The notes beneath the pieces are model-generated. The model saw nothing but the letters and a program-made list of their open reading frames with translations. It was not told the DNA's origin and searched no databases. Position numbers and translations under genes: made by a program. This document shows positions 9,850 to 60,322 of a stretch of 64,000 nucleotides of DNA, in pieces (positions within the stretch are counted from its first letter, which is position 1; each line of letters begins with the position of its first letter). The stretch comes from Parcubacteria group bacterium (lineage in GTDB: Bacteria > Patescibacteriota > Minisyncoccia > Minisyncoccales > UBA10102), in NCBI GenBank assembly GCA_016203945.1, contig JACQLT010000001.1:6645-70644 (forward strand), read 5' to 3'.

Positions 9850-11118
9850 CTAGAGCGAATCCAGTCCCAGAGAAACATTGATGCGATTAAGATCAGTCGG
9901 AACTCGCCACTCCCAAAAAGGCCAAAGGGAAATAGCGAGGTTCTTCACCCCCTCTGTGGCTTCTCCCTGCCTGATTGCCATATCCGGAGCTTTCCCCTGG
10001 ACCCTGAGGGCAACATCCTGTTTTTGCACTGTCGCATACGCTTTTCCCTTTGAAAATCCTGCCAGCAGCAGAGCTCCCTTCTTGTGATCCACGTTCTTGA
10101 ACGTATACCCGCTCTGCACGGTCCTTTCAAGAATCGTTTCTCTTAGAGATAGCTCCTTTTGCATCGACCGGCTCAAAAAATCGTTGAGCGCGCTCCTGGA
10201 AAACGCTATCGCCAAAACCCGTACTTTTCCCGTCACATTGAACTGGCTCAGTTCAGCTCCCGCCTTTGCCAAAGAAGAGGTCTGCGATGACTCCACCAGA
10301 AAGGCGTCTTCCGGAATCTCATAGCCTGCAGGGAGCTGTTTTCGCAGTTCCTGTTTTGCCTGCTCCCTGAGCTCAGTTGCAATCATATCTTTGCCCCGGT
10401 CAAGATCATCCTGCGCTACGACCGTTGTTTCGCTTTTGGATCCTCCTGTCATAGGAGCTGACGACTTGCCGTAAATTGCGGTGTACAAGACAGAACCTGC
10501 AAGTCCGGGAAGTGAAAAGCTAGAAGGCCCGATATTGTAATCCTCCCCCGCTTCTGCGGCAACCACGTCAACATTCAGGGATCCGGGATCTCCGCCCTGA
10601 ACGGCTCCCTGTATCACCACGCGAGCCGTTGAGCGGAACAGCTTTCCGTCTTGGGAGACAAAGCGAGTGTTTGCGACAAGGATTTGGGGCGTGCTTGGCC
10701 TCGTATTGTATACGGTGATCACCCCTCGCGCCTGCCCTTGTTTGCTGGATTTCCCGGTTGCGGAAAACAGCCGCGTGCCGTCTTGTTGTTTTGTCAAAGG
10801 AAGCGCTTCGATAACTTCTCCTGCTTGCGCAGGCAGGATGGCTTCTTTCTTTGCGGCCAGAACCTCCTGCTCCACGAAAACTTCCCTGGAATCCGGGGTC
10901 ACCCTAATCGTTGCTTTTGCGGCAAAGAGATGGATGCCGAGTACGGAGACGAACACGAGACACAACGCTAACGCCGATAATACAAAAGACCTCGGGAGCT
11001 TACGACGAGGTTTCTGCGGCTTTGAAGGAATAAGAACCGGGGAAACCACAGGAACAGCCGGGGGCTTTTGTCGCGCGCCAGAGCGCGGAGTGATGTCAAC
11101 AAGTCTTCGATTATTCAT
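9850..11118 (-). CDS. membrane-anchored hypothetical protein (possibly baseplate-J/gp47-like fold)
   Basis: Basic Pro-rich N-terminus, one TM helix, large extracytoplasmic part; block RFVSQDGKLF...VDVVAAEAGEDYNIGP resembles baseplate J family. Confidence 0.4.
   Translation of the reverse strand: MNNRRLVDITPRSGARQKPPAVPVVSPVLIPSKPQKPRRKLPRSFVLSALALCLVFVSVLGIHLFAAKATIRVTPDSREVFVEQEVLAAKKEAILPAQAGEVIEALPLTKQQDGTRLFSATGKSSKQGQARGVITVYNTRPSTPQILVANTRFVSQDGKLFRSTARVVIQGAVQGGDPGSLNVDVVAAEAGEDYNIGPSSFSLPGLAGSVLYTAIYGKSSAPMTGGSKSETTVVAQDDLDRGKDMIATELREQAKQELRKQLPAGYEIPEDAFLVESSQTSSLAKAGAELSQFNVTGKVRVLAIAFSRSALNDFLSRSMQKELSLRETILERTVQSGYTFKNVDHKKGALLLAGFSKGKAYATVQKQDVALRVQGKAPDMAIRQGEATEGVKNLAISLWPFWEWRVPTDLNRINVSLGLDSL
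10820..10837 (-). repeat. family B short variant, hypothetical-gene copy
   Basis: cctgcttgcgcaggcagg; encodes LPAQAG. Confidence 0.65.
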
Positions 11119-11156: not shown

Positions 11157-13034
11157 TTAGGAAGTTTTCAAAAGATGTCCGCGAATTCTCCGCACCCCGG
11201 CCGATACCGCTTCCTGTTTTCCGATGCGGAATCCCCCCACCTCTCTTGTGTGCTGCACGTGAGGGCCTCCGCACAGTTCTCTGGAGAACACGTCTCCTGT
11301 CTCAGGATTTCGGGCGGAATACACTTTCACCACGTCAGGATACTTCTCTCTCGGGGAATACAGAGCTCCCAAAGCTACCGCTTCCTGAAAGGGCATTTCC
11401 TTATATCCCATATCAAGATTCTGGCGAATCGCTTCGTTCACCAAGAACTCTATTTGTCGCACCTCTTCATCCGTCAGCTTCCGATCAAACGTAAAGTCAA
11501 AGCGGGTGCGTTCCGGGGTGATGTCAGAACCTGCCTGATGCACGCTTTCCCCTAATACCTTGCGCAGGGCAGCCTGCAGCAAATGGGTTGCCGTATGCAA
11601 ACGCGTGACAACCTTCAGTTCCTCCTCGTTCGCCGCCTTCAGCTCTCCCGTATCTAGTAAGAGCCCATGACCTCCGAACTTTCGCTCTTTCCCTGCTCTT
11701 GAAATTTCCTGATGTTTTCGAAATTCCTCATCAAATTCTTCCCTATCAATAAAAAGTGCGTGTTCGGCTAACAATTCGTTAATGAGCTCTAGTGGAAATC
11801 CATAACTCTGATATAAATCAAATGCTTCTTTTGGAGATATAGCATTGATGGTATAGGCAGACTTTTTACGAAGGTTTTTCGGAGGCCATCTAACAGCATA
11901 TTTTTTTTTGTTCTTTTCTCTTGATAAAAGCTTCTGAAACTCTGTAAGGCCCTTTTCAAGAGTCTTGCTAAATCTATCTGTCTCTTTCTGTAAAACTTCT
12001 AAAATAACCGACTTTTCTTCTCGTAAATTATTATAGTCAGGAACCTTACCATATATTCGTATGATTTCTTCTGCAGGACTTAAATAAAATTTTGAATCTA
12101 ACCCAGCTCCGATGTACTTATAGTGATTAAGCATGGCTCGCCTTATTAATCTCCGCAAAATATAACCCGCTTCTTTATTTGAGGGTCTTATTCCGTCTCC
12201 GATCAAAAATATACTGGCACGTAGGTGATCGGCAATAACACGGAGCTTTTCTATTGGTTTATCTCCAATAATTTCAATGATTGAACTGAAAATTGACATA
12301 AACAAATCTGTCTCGAATATATTCTTCTTGCCTTGGACAACCATCGCCAGTCTTTCTAACCCCATGCCGGTATCTACTCCCGGCTTCTCTAGCTTCCGCA
12401 ACTTCTTGTCCTTTGAGCAGTAGTACTCGTTGAATACGATGTTCCAGACCTCGGTGTTGTTGATATAGAGCTCGGTAGTGGGACCGCAGGGTCCCTCAGC
12501 TCCTGTGGGCCCCCAGAAGTTGTCCTCTCTCCCCTCCTCTCTGATATCCTTGACGCCAAGCTCACTCCAGAACTTTTTTGACTCCTCATCTCTGGGAACC
12601 TCCTTGTCTCCCCCGAACACGGTCACATACTGAATCTTCAACCCAATTTCTTTCAAGAACTCATGGGCAAGCCGTATCGCCTCCTCCTTGAAGTATCCGC
12701 CAAAAGAGAAGTTTCCAAGCATCTCAAAGAAGGTGAGGTGGGTCTCGTCTCCGACGCTGTCAATGTCTGAGGTGCGGAAGGATTTTTGAATGGATACCGC
12801 GTTCCTGCTTCCCAGGAACTTCCCTCCCAAGGTTTGATGAGGAGAAGACATGGGATCTGCCTCTCCCGTGTAATAGGGCTTAAACTGCTGCATGCCTGCC
12901 GTGGTAAGAAGCACAGAGGCGTCATCTGGAACCAAAGAAGACGAGGGCACAATGGTGTGCTTCCCGCCCGTGGCGGGTCCGCCTTGGGCGGAAAAAAACT
13001 CCAAAAATCTCCTGCGCAACTCCTGCGACTCCAT
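11157..13034 (-). CDS. alaS: alanyl-tRNA synthetase, short form (625 aa, no C-Ala domain)
   Basis: TAGMQQFKP, FEMLGNFSFGGYFK, GMGLERL, editing-domain HTATHLL and CGGPH motifs. Confidence 0.9.
   Translation of the reverse strand: MESQELRRRFLEFFSAQGGPATGGKHTIVPSSSLVPDDASVLLTTAGMQQFKPYYTGEADPMSSPHQTLGGKFLGSRNAVSIQKSFRTSDIDSVGDETHLTFFEMLGNFSFGGYFKEEAIRLAHEFLKEIGLKIQYVTVFGGDKEVPRDEESKKFWSELGVKDIREEGREDNFWGPTGAEGPCGPTTELYINNTEVWNIVFNEYYCSKDKKLRKLEKPGVDTGMGLERLAMVVQGKKNIFETDLFMSIFSSIIEIIGDKPIEKLRVIADHLRASIFLIGDGIRPSNKEAGYILRRLIRRAMLNHYKYIGAGLDSKFYLSPAEEIIRIYGKVPDYNNLREEKSVILEVLQKETDRFSKTLEKGLTEFQKLLSREKNKKKYAVRWPPKNLRKKSAYTINAISPKEAFDLYQSYGFPLELINELLAEHALFIDREEFDEEFRKHQEISRAGKERKFGGHGLLLDTGELKAANEEELKVVTRLHTATHLLQAALRKVLGESVHQAGSDITPERTRFDFTFDRKLTDEEVRQIEFLVNEAIRQNLDMGYKEMPFQEAVALGALYSPREKYPDVVKVYSARNPETGDVFSRELCGGPHVQHTREVGGFRIGKQEAVSAGVRRIRGHLLKTS
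12963..12992 (-). repeat. family A 30-nt in-frame double-hairpin element, alaS copy
   Basis: cccgcccgtggcggg|tccgccttgggcgga; encodes SAQGGPATGG. Confidence 0.8.
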
Positions 13035-13040
13035 GCATTG

Positions 13041-13069
13041 AGTATATCATTTATCCTTGACTCGGTTAA
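13041..13069 (-). promoter_or_regulatory. alaS promoter, leaderless type
   Basis: TTAACC-17-TATACT (TGa extended), 6 nt to ATG. Confidence 0.45.
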
Positions 13070-13070
13070 G

Positions 13071-13079
13071 TTATCCACA
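13071..13079 (+). promoter_or_regulatory. consensus DnaA box
   Basis: TTATCCACA, abuts alaS -35. Confidence 0.3.
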
Positions 13080-13108
13080 CCTTGACTTAGCCAAGGATAT
13101 ACGACCGT

Positions 13109-13149
13109 AAAAGAAAGGGGGGTCAGAGCCACTGATGTGGATAACCCCC
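13109..13149 (-). terminator. terminator-like hairpin after secreted-protein gene
   Basis: GGGGGT...ACCCCC with inner CCAC/GTGG, followed by TTTCTTTT on minus strand. Confidence 0.4.
13136..13144 (-). promoter_or_regulatory. consensus DnaA box (inverted)
   Basis: tgtggataa on plus strand; inside terminator-like loop. Confidence 0.25.
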
Positions 13150-13184
13150 TCGTTGCGAACTCCTGAGAGTCCTTAAGTTGATGA

Positions 13185-14234
13185 TTAGCGCTGCAGCGCT
13201 CCGGCGACGATATCTCCCCGGAAGATGACGTCAGCCCGGTGATACGGACCGATGCCGTTGATTCCCCAAGCAAGGTTGCCAGGGCTCGAATCGTCAAGCC
13301 GCACCTGGATTGCGTCGCCCAGATCGTCAAGATCGGTCGTGTCTCCGTACAGGTAGATCCTTCTCGTTTGCTGGGCTGGCACAACGAGTTCACCAAAACT
13401 GCCGAAGGAACTGCCGAAGTAAATCTCCACTGCGAGATCTGCTTCGTTTTCTCTGATCCCCACCAGAAGCTTGTCTCCAAGCCTGATTCCGTATTCGTCC
13501 CTCAAGACGAATCCCATGTGAGTTTTGGTTTGCTTGGAGATCGATCTGGTGATCCAAAACGTCACGTAGTCCAATTCCTGGAACGTTACGCTTTGGGTTC
13601 CCACTGCCGTGATGTCAAAGACGGCAAGCAGCGTATTGGAAGAAGGGGTGAGCGTTCCGGAAGGAGTGGCCGAGTTTATGGTGAACCTCGGATAGCTCCC
13701 GAAGTACCGATGCGTGGGACCGGGCACCGCATGAAAGTCCCATACCCTCTGGGATGGGGTGGTGCCCATCGCCCCGATGAGGCTCACCTCGATTGGCACC
13801 TCATTGTCTAATGGCGATACCATGGGATAGGTTTCGCCAAGAACCGTGATAGCCTTGAAACTCCCTGCTGGCACCGAAAGCACGCCGTCCTCAAAGTTTA
13901 GTTTGATGACTTGAGGAGAGCTTCCCCCGACTGCAAATTCTTTGATGAGATTGCCAGCGTGGTAGATGCTGAGCTTCGCTATATGCTCGCTGCCGACCAC
14001 GCGGAATACGAGCATAGTCACAGCCACGTTCTCGTTGCCGGCGCTCAGGATGAACGATGCCAAAGGGATATTCATATATCCTGCTGGCACCAGGCTGCTT
14101 ACGGATTCGGCCCGGAAATCCCGCTCCATGCTTAACGAACGGGCTCTCGTTCCCGCTCCCATTGCCGTGGACGCGGGAAGCATCACAGCTAGAACAGCGA
14201 GAATTGCGACCAGGACTGCTAGTTTCTTAAACAC
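13185..14234 (-). CDS. secreted hypothetical protein (two beta-rich repeats)
   Basis: GTG at 14234 preceded by AGAGGAGGG; signal-like FKKLAVLVAILAVLAVMLPASTAMG; ORF-track start 14324 judged too long. Confidence 0.5.
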   Translation of the reverse strand: MFKKLAVLVAILAVLAVMLPASTAMGAGTRARSLSMERDFRAESVSSLVPAGYMNIPLASFILSAGNENVAVTMLVFRVVGSEHIAKLSIYHAGNLIKEFAVGGSSPQVIKLNFEDGVLSVPAGSFKAITVLGETYPMVSPLDNEVPIEVSLIGAMGTTPSQRVWDFHAVPGPTHRYFGSYPRFTINSATPSGTLTPSSNTLLAVFDITAVGTQSVTFQELDYVTFWITRSISKQTKTHMGFVLRDEYGIRLGDKLLVGIRENEADLAVEIYFGSSFGSFGELVVPAQQTRRIYLYGDTTDLDDLGDAIQVRLDDSSPGNLAWGINGIGPYHRADVIFRGDIVAGALQR

Positions 14235-14316
14235 GGGAAATCCCTCCTCTATGCTATCTACATAGGGTTGTAGTTGCTGAATAGCACAATATCGTAAAAC
14301 GTTGGATCTGTCAATA

Positions 14317-15357
14317 TTAGACAATAACGCCGCCTGCGATGAGTTGGGTATCCTGATAGAGAGCCGCCACTTGGCCTGGAGTAATGGCGCGCTGAGGGGT
14401 TTGGAACGTAAGCTTGTACGCGTCCCCTATCTTGGAAAGCGTGGCTGGGGCCAGATGCTGGCGATATCTAATACGCGCATCCACCGAGATGAGATTCTTT
14501 CTCGTGTCCCCAGAAAGCCAGTTTATGTCCCGCAGTATCAGCTCTTTCTGATACAATCCCTCTTCGTTCTTGCTCACTACGAGAATATTGCGATCAATAT
14601 CCTTTTGCACGACGTAGTACGGACCCCCTCCCAATCCAATACCCTTTCTTTGCCCAATGGTGTAATACTGCGCTCCCTCGTGCGTTCCGAGCACGGTTCC
14701 CTGAACATCTATGATCTTCCCTGGCTTCACGGGCAAATAGTGCTTTAAGAAATCAACGACATCCACTTTTCCAACGAAACAAATGCCCTGGCTGTCTTTA
14801 CGTTCCGCATTCGGCAGCCCGAACCTCCTCGCCAGCTCCCGAACCTGAGGCTTCGTATGTTCCCCTATCGGAAACAACACCTTGCTCAGCACCTCTGGCT
14901 TGATAAACGAGAGGAAGTACGACTGATCTTTGTTTTCATCAACGGCCTCCCGCAGCTTTCCGTCCTTCAGGCGGGCATAGTGGCCGGTTGCGACGTATGC
15001 GGCTCCGAGCTGTATTGCCTTTTCAAAGAACAAGCCGAATTTGATTTCCTTGTTGCACATGGCATCAGGATTCGGAGTAATCCCTTTGCGGTAGCCTTCC
15101 AAGAGATAATCAACGACCCGTTTCTTGTACTCATCAATGAAGTTCACGGCGTAAAAGGGAATGTTCAGATGAGAAGCCGCCAGGCGAGCCATGCGCTCGT
15201 CTTCTTTGCTCGTGCACGCAGGAGACAATTCGGCCGACCAGCACTTCATGAAGATTCCGACAACCTCAAAACCGGCCTTCTTGAGCAAGGCCGCGGCTAC
15301 CGAAGAATCCACGCCTCCCGACATGGCGACTATAATTTTTGATCGCTTCTTGATCAT
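14317..15357 (-). CDS. mnmA: tRNA 2-thiouridine(34) synthase
   Basis: PP-loop AMSGGVDSSV, full-length MnmA/TrmU similarity. Confidence 0.9.
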   Translation of the reverse strand: MIKKRSKIIVAMSGGVDSSVAAALLKKAGFEVVGIFMKCWSAELSPACTSKEDERMARLAASHLNIPFYAVNFIDEYKKRVVDYLLEGYRKGITPNPDAMCNKEIKFGLFFEKAIQLGAAYVATGHYARLKDGKLREAVDENKDQSYFLSFIKPEVLSKVLFPIGEHTKPQVRELARRFGLPNAERKDSQGICFVGKVDVVDFLKHYLPVKPGKIIDVQGTVLGTHEGAQYYTIGQRKGIGLGGGPYYVVQKDIDRNILVVSKNEEGLYQKELILRDINWLSGDTRKNLISVDARIRYRQHLAPATLSKIGDAYKLTFQTPQRAITPGQVAALYQDTQLIAGGVIV

Positions 15358-35374: not shown

Positions 35375-35989
35375 TTACAGAGAAAACCCGACGATGAGGG
35401 AAAAAAGAATGCGCACGAGAGACACGAGCCAGTCAAAGAAGAAAAAGATGAATATGAGCAGCAGAAAGAATCCGTACTGTTGAAGGAATGCGCGCATGGA
35501 ACGCATAGAGTCCGGCAACACGGAAAACAGGAGATGGGAGCCGTCAAGCGGCGGAATGGGAAGGAAGTTGAACAACGCAAGGAGCAGGTTTACAGAAACA
35601 ATGGAAGCCAAGAAATACGGGACAGCCGAGGGCAGGGCCGCGAGAGGAAGAAAGCGGAGCAATAATCCGAATACAAGCGCTATCAGTAGATTTGAGGCGG
35701 GACCTGCAATACTTACCTTGGCATGCCCCCATTTCTGATCTCGCAAGCGCATGGGATTTACGGGAACCGGCTTTGCCCATCCAATGGCAAACCCTCCCCC
35801 GCTTACCAAAAGCAAGAGCAGAGGAAGGATAACAGAACCAAAGGGATCGAGGTGCGGGATGGGATTGAGAGTCAGCCTCCCCTCGTCCTTTGCCGTAGAG
35901 TCTCCCAGCGCGTTGGCGACAGCGCCGTGTGAAACCTCGTGCAGCACCACGGAAATCAAGAGCACCGCGATAAGAAATATAAAATCCAT
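35375..35989 (-). CDS. M50-family site-2 protease homologue (small, SpoIVFB-like)
   Basis: HEVSHG zinc motif in TM helix, [15 protein letters not shown]; start MDFIFLI. Confidence 0.75.
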
Positions 35990-35997
35990 ACCGTTCA

Positions 35998-36026
35998 AGT
36001 ATATCGCAAAACGATATATCAAGCAA
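35998..36026 (-). promoter_or_regulatory. M50 gene promoter, leaderless type
   Basis: TTGCTT-17-TATACT, 8 nt to ATG. Confidence 0.45.
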
Positions 36027-58897: not shown

Positions 58898-60271
58898 ATG
58901 AAGAGAATAGCCGTTGTCGGCGCTGGCATGGTGACAGCGCACGGCAGAAGCAAGGAGACCTGGTCTGCGGTCTGCAATGGAAGGTCTGCTATCGCTGAGC
59001 TTCCGCAGACATGCGAGCTTGCGGCAGACGAAGAGCGCATCGGAGACGCGGCCTTCGAATGCTTTAGGGAGTGCGAAACGACCATCGGAGGATACCTCCC
59101 GAGAGAATGTCTGTCCGGTCTCGTCTTCGCCTCTCGTCCGGCGCTAGCGGTACGGGACATTGAGCGGAGTACGCCCCCAACGCAGTTCGCCTTTGTCGCG
59201 GTTCACGAGGCCCTCTTAACGGCCCGGCTCCTCGGTGAAGACGGGACGCTGCTCCCTCGGTTAGCTGAACGAACCGGTATTTCGCTCGGAAGCGGCATCG
59301 GTTCCTCCTCGAGAGTCGGAGACCTCGCCTCGCGCCTCCTCCAGATTCGGCGCGAGCCGAATGAGGAGACAAGGCAAAAGCTGTTCAGGACGCTGTTGAG
59401 GTCTCATCTGGACTCGGCGGCCACGGCCCTGCCGGACGCCTCCTCGTATCTCTTGGCAAAGACGTTTCAACTGCAGGGGCCTACCAACTGCACAATCAAC
59501 GCCTGCGCCACGGGAGCTGGAAACATCCGGCATGCCGCCATGGAAATCCTCCTGGGATATGTGGACGTAATGGTGGCCGGAGGAACGGAGGCCCTGAGCG
59601 CCATTGCGATGAAGGCGTTCAACATGTACGCCAAAAGCGGCGCTTTGAGCCGGCAAAACGGGCTGGGACCAAGAGCGAGCCGTCCGTTCGATGAAGCCCG
59701 GGACGGATTCGTGCCGGCCGAGGGAGCGGGAGTAGTCGTTCTCATGCGAGAAGAGCTCGCCTCAGACCTCCAGATTCCACCCCTGGCATATCTGGAGGGG
59801 TATGGCGCCTCCAACGACGCCAAACATCTCACGGACCCCGACGTGCACGGCCAGAGCCGCGCCATGAAAGAGGCCATCTCCATGGCAGGCCTCACCCCAG
59901 AAGACATCGGGGCTGTAAAGGCGCACGGCACGTCCACAAAAAACGGGGACGTGGCAGAGCTCAGGAGCATCAGGCAGGTGCTGGGAGAGAGGCGCTGTCC
60001 CATCTGGGCCCCCAAGTCCGTTCTCGGACATACCGTGGGCGCGTGCGGAGGCATTGAAACGGTACTTGCCGTGCTCGCGCTCAAGCACCAGGTCATTCCG
60101 GGAACCATCAACATCGAGAATCCGATCCCGGACTGCGGAGAGGAGCATTTACACAAAGAAGCGTGTTTTCCAAAAATTCCTCACCGCACCACGGAGGCGA
60201 ATGTTCGGCACATGCTGCTCAACTACTTTGGGTTCGGAGGCCAAAATGTCTGTCTCGTGCTGGGAAAGTAA
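58898..60271 (+). CDS. beta-ketoacyl synthase (KAS I/II, FabF-like) orphan
   Basis: Cys-His-His triad contexts NACATGAGN, AHGTSTKNGD, LGHTVGACGG; FGFGGQN C-terminus. Confidence 0.85.
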   Translation: MKRIAVVGAGMVTAHGRSKETWSAVCNGRSAIAELPQTCELAADEERIGDAAFECFRECETTIGGYLPRECLSGLVFASRPALAVRDIERSTPPTQFAFVAVHEALLTARLLGEDGTLLPRLAERTGISLGSGIGSSSRVGDLASRLLQIRREPNEETRQKLFRTLLRSHLDSAATALPDASSYLLAKTFQLQGPTNCTINACATGAGNIRHAAMEILLGYVDVMVAGGTEALSAIAMKAFNMYAKSGALSRQNGLGPRASRPFDEARDGFVPAEGAGVVVLMREELASDLQIPPLAYLEGYGASNDAKHLTDPDVHGQSRAMKEAISMAGLTPEDIGAVKAHGTSTKNGDVAELRSIRQVLGERRCPIWAPKSVLGHTVGACGGIETVLAVLALKHQVIPGTINIENPIPDCGEEHLHKEACFPKIPHRTTEANVRHMLLNYFGFGGQNVCLVLGK

Positions 60272-60291
60272 ATTGGCCAAGGAACCAAAAA

Positions 60292-60322
60292 GGCGGAGAG
60301 TTTCTCTCCGCCTCTTTTTTTT
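60292..60322. terminator. bidirectional terminator between KAS gene and yvcK-like gene
   Basis: ggcggagag-ttt-ctctccgcc flanked by A5 and T-run. Confidence 0.7.

Follow-up and report, generated by a model that had tools for sequence, protein, structure and literature searches.

The classic mosaic genes of interspecies recombination are the pbp genes of Streptococcus and Neisseria. Aminoacyl-tRNA synthetases (aaRS) serve as stable phylogenetic and genome-quality markers, and their horizontal gene transfer is usually discussed at the level of the whole gene. The homeoalleles treated by Andam and Gogarten in Biol Direct (2011) reportedly are whole genes (for example TyrRS, SerRS, ThrRS) that are swapped via flanking homology. 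Intragenic recombination or domain swapping in the alanyl-tRNA synthetase (AlaRS) of bacteria of the candidate phyla radiation (CPR) was not found described in the literature, only papers on homeoalleles. The gene considered here is alaS (11157–13034, minus strand), which encodes alanine–tRNA ligase in a Parcubacteria group bacterium (assembly GCA_016203945.1, contig JACQLT010000001.1); the whole 64-kb stretch of this contig that was analysed is called the window, and positions refer to it. The AT-rich middle third of the gene comprises the entire tRNA-recognition domain of AlaRS and was probably acquired through homologous replacement by the domain of a Parcubacteria lineage richer in AT; such replacement recurs, and the window shows one case of it rather than a single event.

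Composition break within alaS

Three segments can be distinguished within alaS. The N segment (codons 1–237; 12324–13034; minus strand, as is every part of the gene) encodes the aminoacylation domain through motif 3 and is host-like in composition (G+C 0.53; G+C at third codon positions, GC3, about 0.65); the C segment (codons 451–625; 11160–11684), encoding linker and editing domain, is host-like as well (G+C 0.537). Between them lies the M segment (codons 238–450; 11685–12323), the complete tRNA-recognition or helical middle domain, putatively replaced, with a G+C of 0.349 and a GC3 of 0.29. The initial annotation, made without database searches, had described a drop in G+C at 11700–12345, or residues ~230–445; measurement gave 0.350 there against 0.534 in 11157–11699 and 0.530 in 12346–13034, and the residue range was correct. 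Sliding G+C and codon-position composition, the check it had proposed, bore the drop out: across all 645-bp stretches of the 64-kb window, G+C reaches its minimum here, 0.349 (start 11685, z = −5.6), and the next-lowest value outside alaS is 0.437. GC3 is 0.29 inside the tract and 0.63 in the remainder of the gene. Compared with a single rate, a likelihood model of GC3 with two breakpoints gains a log-likelihood ratio (LLR) of 35; it delimits inner codons 242–461 (support intervals 232–253 and 445–465), which places the maximum-likelihood estimate of the low-GC3 tract at 11652–12311. AT-type codons (TTA GAA AGA) begin already at codons 226–228. None of the other 56 long open reading frames (ORFs) in the window contains a 200-codon stretch below a GC3 of 0.39 (mean 0.60, SD 0.067). 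As in a mosaic gene, synonymous sites thus change composition abruptly although the ORF runs on without interruption.

Composition switches in two short stretches encoding conserved sequence. The left anchor (12300–12380) comprises motif 3, GVDTGMGLERL (12348–12380), and NIFETDLF (12300–12323); in the right anchor (11661–11717), composed of KHQEISRAG (11691–11717) and KFGGHGL (11661–11681), composition switches back. The amino acid composition of M leans to AT-rich codons as well, the share of FYMINK residues being 0.36 in the M of the window alaS versus 0.26 in that of a related gene, L165; this shift fits a long residence in an AT-rich genome. A domain-specific amino acid bias was considered and rejected as the cause of the dip, because third codon positions drop equally strongly, GC3 falling from 0.63 to 0.29, and because many alaS genes are without a dip.

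How general the dip is was surveyed in a broad sample of genome and metagenome loci among the matches listed, rather than in the closest relatives. The mean difference between the GC3 of M and that of its flanks is −0.03 in 80 diverse genomes; for 63 metagenome loci of Parcubacteria it averages −0.07 with a median of −0.06, and the merged set of 130 non-identical alaS genes has a median of −0.05. A slight general AT tendency of the middle domain thus exists. A strong dip (< −0.15) occurs in 13 of the 130, a strong rise (> +0.15) in none, and no strong dip is seen in 38 of the 45 genes with a flank GC3 of at least 0.5. With a dip of −0.35 (z = −7.9 against its flanks) the window gene ranks second. 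The strongest dip of the 130 is that of the alaS of L115 (Ga0155884_110; flank GC3 0.71, M GC3 0.28, z = −9.4), which is likely to be another recent cassette replacement. That all strong anomalies are AT-rich fits both the general tendency of acquired DNA and the low G+C of most sampled Parcubacteria loci; DNA taken up from elsewhere is commonly AT-rich, and its amelioration in hosts of higher G+C is slow.

The initial annotation had allowed that alaS of all relatives might show the same dip. It does not: beyond the counts just given, L165, which belongs to the same clade as the relatives sharing the gene order around alaS, has an M with a GC3 of 0.59–0.60 and no dip, and its flanks are 94–95% identical in amino acid sequence to those of L003, whose M has a GC3 of 0.31–0.32. 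The dip is therefore not a general property of the domain; it is sporadic and tied to which M a gene carries.

Separate ancestry of the three segments

The gene order mnmA – alaS – 415-aa protein – infA – rpsM – rpsK is common to the window and two relatives, L002 (AlaRS P0007) and L003 (P0034); the protein set including those of these two syntenic loci is called group A. Neighbouring genes of L002 and L003 are 64–95% identical to those of the window, with 0.5–1.5 substitutions per synonymous site (dS) and 0.03–0.16 per nonsynonymous site (dN). The C segment matches this divergence, being 88–92% identical to group A, with a dS of 0.8–1.05 and a dN of 0.04–0.07 to L002, L003 and L165. The M segment is only 38–45% identical to that of the syntenic relatives (dN about 0.67–0.69). 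Averaged across relatives, identity to the window is 45% for M, 73% for N and 69% for C.

The initial annotation had taken the N flank as native, which holds for its composition but not for its ancestry: N is 69–75% identical to group A, whose members are 79–95% identical among themselves there, and its dN to L002, L003 and L165 is 0.22–0.26, with dS saturated, versus 0.03–0.16 in the neighbouring genes. The congruence of the segments, for which the initial annotation had suggested separate phylogenies, was assessed by distance-based tests and was not found. In bootstrap replicates, the nearest neighbours of N are P0005, P0009 or P0043, with group A taking this place in only 1%, that of M is the P0003 group (96%) and that of C is group A (100%). 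The segments of alaS have incongruent phylogenetic affinities, a further mark of a mosaic gene. The editing domain alone tracks the organism, and alaS is composed of three parts with separate histories, since N also diverges from the syntenic relatives beyond the neighbouring genes; the N-terminal catalytic domain seems to have a non-vertical history of its own, from a separate or an older event.

Exchange of the middle domain among relatives

The 120 closest proteins among the matches listed show that M is exchanged independently of its flanks. In pairs whose N segments are 85–95% identical, M identity is bimodal, either 70–95% or 30–50%. Two pairs of loci illustrate the latter case: L111 and L126 have a dS of 0.28 in N and 0.12 in C and of 2.35 in M, and L003 and L165 have M segments that are 36–38% identical; for both pairs together, the flanks are 94–98% and M is 36–46% identical. 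L141 and L142 present a pattern like that of L111 and L126. The reverse is also seen, M being closer than either flank: P0021 and P0018 compared with P0057 have identities of 73% in N, 90% in M and 72–74% in C, and P0011 versus P0033 as well as P0007 versus P0008 and P0024 are further cases. At the nucleotide level this is clearest for L166 (JGI) and L167 (Logan), which originate from two independent data sets; their M has a dS of 0.28 and a dN of 0.044, and is under purifying selection, with saturated flanks (dN about 0.2).

Breakpoints map near codon 221 (motif 3) and near codon 441 in L111/L126, and near codon 240 (IFETDLF) and near codon 436 in L166/L167; the right breakpoints of both pairs (codons 436–441) lie just before or in HQEISRAG, and all of these breakpoints are in or beside the conserved blocks where the composition of the window gene switches. 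The 120 proteins fall into 50 M clusters at 62% linkage, and the eight close relatives of group A carry six M types, so that the turnover of the cassette is about as fast as the divergence of species. The mosaics in these relatives are biological, not assembly artefacts, because copies of the same M type in different backgrounds are 74–90% and not 100% identical, independent data sets are involved, and the L003 gene was recovered by two pipelines, as an NCBI assembly and as a Logan assembly.

Naturally split AlaRS genes were examined as a possible source of modularity (P0230, 281 aa, and P0149, 341 aa, both on long contigs) and were discarded, the loci appearing to be ridden with frameshifts. 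In these loci (L168:3435-5201 and L169:4001-5476), the alaS region is divided into a series of small gene calls, and L169 has a broken dnaG and a broken sigma factor gene besides. These are read as frameshift errors of long-read assemblies (the names of the contigs suggest long reads) and not as genuine splits.

The tRNA-recognition domain and its basic loop

The product of alaS (625 aa) and P0001, an NCBI protein of a metagenome-assembled genome (MAG) of the Parcubacteria group, are identical. The product matches the Pfam families tRNA-synt_2c (PF01411; residues 5–453, E 7e-103) and tRNA_SAD (PF07973; residues 579–617, E 1e-12) and solved AlaRS structures (E 2e-65). The class II catalytic core of this class IIc synthetase is present, including motif 3 (GVDTGMGLERL, residues 219–229), and so are the zinc motifs of the editing domain, HxxxH (HTATH, 480–484) and CxxxH (CGGPH, 588–592). 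The C-Ala domain of full-length bacterial AlaRS is absent; the protein stops at residue 625, straight after the editing domain. As the 120 relatives listed have 541–656 aa, this is a short form of the enzyme and not a truncation particular to this gene.

In alignments, the AT-rich part corresponds to about residues 240–430 of solved N-terminal AlaRS fragments; residues 179–449 align with 183–429 of chain 9jc7_A and residues 3–446 with 1riq_A. This is the helical tRNA-recognition domain, which follows motif 3 and ends where the E. coli 1–441 fragment ends; the tract is bounded by GVDTGMGLERL/NIFETDLF at its start and KHQEISRAG/KFGGHGL at its end. All M residues that are invariant in the clade (30 relatives) are retained: F240, T242, F245, R265, D269, H270, F276, P284, Y291, R294, R298, E351, F355, F405, G412, H441 and S445. 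An AlphaFold2 (AF2) model is helical over residues 246–452, with a predicted local distance difference test score (pLDDT) mostly of 75–93 by block. The segment is thus the entire tRNA-recognition domain and genuine AlaRS sequence. The initial annotation had quoted AlaRS peptides as evidence of this, and RVIADHLRA (265–273), GYILRRLIRRA (290–300) and FDLYQSYGFP (405–414) are indeed present; its statement that the segment is no intron, intein or insertion sequence (IS) agrees with a homology to AlaRS that is continuous and carries the conserved motifs. An intein, intron or IS was likewise rejected here because, apart from a loop of ~20 residues, the segment aligns with the solved domain, keeps its invariant residues and is helical in the model.

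In FDLYQSYGFP, Q409 (11808–11810) occupies the position at which solved bacterial AlaRS have the Asp of LYDTYGFP, and in the different M types of the relatives this position is Gln or Glu (LYQS or LYES). That Asp participates in the recognition of G3:U70, so the M types may differ in their reading of the acceptor stem.

The loop, KNKKKYAVRWPPKNLRKKSAYT, comprises residues 374–395 (11850–11915), has a net charge of +9, and is located between a long helix (341–375) and a helix at 401–411. The model gives a pLDDT below 50 for residues 379–395, and the loop is predicted to be flexible. In the initial annotation it had been called an odd basic insertion. The basic stretch is there, but it is not odd: the spacing between F355 and F405, which is 50 residues in the window alaS, is 23 residues in 85 of the 120 relatives listed and 41–76 in about 22 of them, and the loop of P0011 resembles that of the window (HFAVRV..KEDF..KSEHFINLIS). 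One may speculate that it adds affinity for tRNA in enzymes without C-Ala. Nine consecutive A of the coding strand (A9; T9 when read on plus) at 11901–11909, pointed out already in the initial annotation and encoding part of KKK, form the only homopolymer of at least nine nucleotides in the 64-kb window. Both other frames around it hold stops and neither reads through; with these stops and with homologous insertions in P0011 and other proteins, an origin of the loop as a frameshift artefact at the A9 run was rejected.

Origin of the AT-rich segment

The most probable origin of the window M is homologous replacement, as the initial annotation had proposed when it invoked an AT-rich donor; the break at synonymous sites, the incongruent segments and the exchange of the same domain in relatives support it. 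DNA of an AT-richer Parcubacteria lineage would have entered alaS via a double crossover (allelic replacement), one crossover falling into the DNA encoding motif 3 and NIFETDLF and the other into that encoding KHQEISRAG and KFGGHG; these stretches are conserved across the clade and flank a structurally self-contained domain. The hybrid enzyme would be functional, since the domain has kept its conserved contact residues. The middle domain behaves as an exchangeable cassette in this clade of Parcubacteria, with many deeply divergent types circulating among close relatives. From the other pairs we infer that the window's own M came by the same route, from an AT-rich donor and by crossover. When M GC3 is regressed on flank GC3, the value of 0.29 points to a donor flank GC3 of about 0.35; among the matches listed, sampled loci with a flank GC3 near 0.35–0.39 have a locus G+C of about 0.37–0.40, so the donor genome may be put at about 38–40% G+C. 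A phage as the vector was rejected, as viral contigs hold only relatives at 25–34% identity.

Several observations weigh against this origin. The best M matches, P0003, P0002, P0006 and P0079, are 56–60% identical: the full-length search of ~5.8 billion clustered proteins returned a best M identity of 59%, and an exhaustive HMMER search with M against 1.84 billion representatives found none above 54% to any representative of a 50% cluster. A search with M only, covering proteins of at most 385 aa, gave 48% at best. A high-identity donor lineage of the kind expected for a mosaic gene did not emerge from these searches, and as window M is without a close relative the replacement event is neither datable nor traceable. 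The exact-protein look-up placed the window alaS product on one contig, with no independent record, and all sequences compared are metagenome assemblies. A GC3 dip in M is seen in the syntenic loci L002 and L003 too, and an intrinsic AT tendency of the middle domain (median dip −0.05, all strong anomalies negative) may contribute to some extent.

The last two points lead to the alternative that the segment arose in situ, the least constrained domain evolving fast and drifting to AT through biased mutation and weak selection on codons. M is indeed the least conserved segment everywhere, and strong positive deviations of its GC3 are lacking, as noted. Such drift would, however, leave a graded M identity in close relatives and not a bimodal one, and it does not accommodate the host-like M (GC3 about 0.6) of L165, whose flanks are so similar to those of dip-bearing L003, nor the 38 of 45 genes of high flank GC3 without a strong dip. 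The switch of GC3 in the window gene is abrupt and matches the breakpoints mapped in other pairs; for L166 and L167, an M dS of 0.28 against saturated flanks is impossible by divergence in situ. This origin is considered unlikely. It is very improbable that the AT-richness was selected as such, be it that it slows translation between domains for co-translational folding, keeps mRNA structure low, or harbours an internal or antisense signal. The coincidence of the tract with a domain boundary and the dips of several relatives at this place would fit such a function, but most alaS genes, including those of close relatives, do without the dip, the ORF listing contains no other ORF of at least 60 aa inside 11685–12323 on either strand, and phylogenetic incongruence and transfers would be left unexplained.

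A chimeric assembly is the explanation of another kind: the alaS flanks of the host might have been joined to the alaS middle of a co-occurring AT-rich Parcubacterium via shared motif k-mers. The contig stems from a MAG, and its AlaRS is a singleton on one contig with no exact record elsewhere. The junctions coincide with the motif-coding stretches of highest conservation, at which sharing of k-mers across genomes is likeliest. But two in-frame switches at homologous positions would be required, and the exact nucleotide matches between the window alaS and three relatives, which reach only 14–35 nt (one of 17 nt to L003 starts at codon 465), are merely 14–17 nt at the junctions. The same architecture is found in many independent assemblies, with M copies 74–90% identical and with the L003 mosaic obtained from two pipelines, and no other fragment matching window M was present in the databases searched. 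Because of the two switches, the short matches at the junctions and the natural occurrence of this architecture in relatives, chimerism is rated as having a low probability.

If the middle domain was replaced homologously, as is preferred here, its turnover is by default ascribed to neutral exchange, made possible by conserved anchors that are short and by a domain that is self-contained. A homeoallele system at the level of the domain, in which dozens of cassette types with phylum-level divergence are kept circulating by selection and not by neutral recombination, appears doubtful; escape from an inhibitor, a toxin or a phage factor which binds M, or the matching of variant acceptor stems of tRNA-Ala, would be possible selective agents.

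Genomic surroundings of alaS

The syntenic relatives differ in the genes that they have in the spacer separating mnmA from alaS. In the window (13035–14324) this spacer contains one protein of 379 aa without a Pfam match, 63% identical to a protein of L003; there are three genes at this place in L003 (3382-5888), none in L002 (3164-3183), and one small ORF each in L166 and L167 (L167:1215-1631). L003 and L167 have an additional gene downstream of alaS. The gene borders on a variable spot, and this location may favour recombination events that terminate inside alaS. Downstream, a protein of 422 aa (9850–11118, minus strand) keeps its position in every syntenic relative; Pfam yields for it only a weak hit to the GlxA beta-barrel domain (E 2e-6).

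Elsewhere in the window there are two further compositional outliers. The lowest GC3 of a whole ORF (0.39) is that of a 161-aa ORF at 35544–36026 (minus strand). A stretch of 1.2 kb at 59100–60300, with a G+C of about 0.62, lies within an ORF of 458 aa (58898–60271, plus strand; GC3 0.70).

Comparison with known systems

The domain order of the window AlaRS, aminoacylation, helical tRNA-recognition and editing, is that of the E. coli 1–441 (PDB 3HXU) and A. aeolicus (1RIQ) enzymes, and motif 3, RVIADH, PSN..GY.LRR..RR and YGFP are conserved as in canonical bacterial AlaRS. Unlike these, it lacks C-Ala, has an inserted basic loop of 22 aa, and has Gln for the Asp of LYDTYGFP. AlaRS tolerates heterologous tRNA-recognition domains in nature, which is useful for the engineering of the enzyme; at the same time, alaS cannot be relied on as a marker in these groups of Parcubacteria.

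As in the pbp mosaics, a block within an essential gene has, on the reading preferred here, been replaced by a diverged homologue with crossovers in conserved stretches, there are breaks in composition and in divergence, and many lineages have undergone such events repeatedly; taken by itself, the window provides good support for an essential gene being mosaic. The alaS block differs from those of pbp in being exactly one structural domain, that of an aminoacyl-tRNA synthetase, and in that its alleles differ by 55–65% in protein sequence; this far exceeds the divergence of pbp mosaics and is why the conserved anchors are short. To our knowledge, no selective agent comparable to an antibiotic acts on the alaS cassette, and the question arises whether an inhibitor, a phage factor or variation of tRNA-Ala selects for turnover of the domain.

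With the homeoalleles of aaRS, M shares the coexistence of deeply divergent forms in a related group and their exchange by transfer, both of which are observed for it. It departs from them, as they are reportedly described, in that the exchange concerns a single internal domain with breakpoints inside the gene (codons about 221–245 and 436–461) and that many types circulate instead of two; what is exchanged repeatedly between lineages of these uncultivated bacteria with reduced genomes is the one internal domain that reads the acceptor stem of the tRNA.

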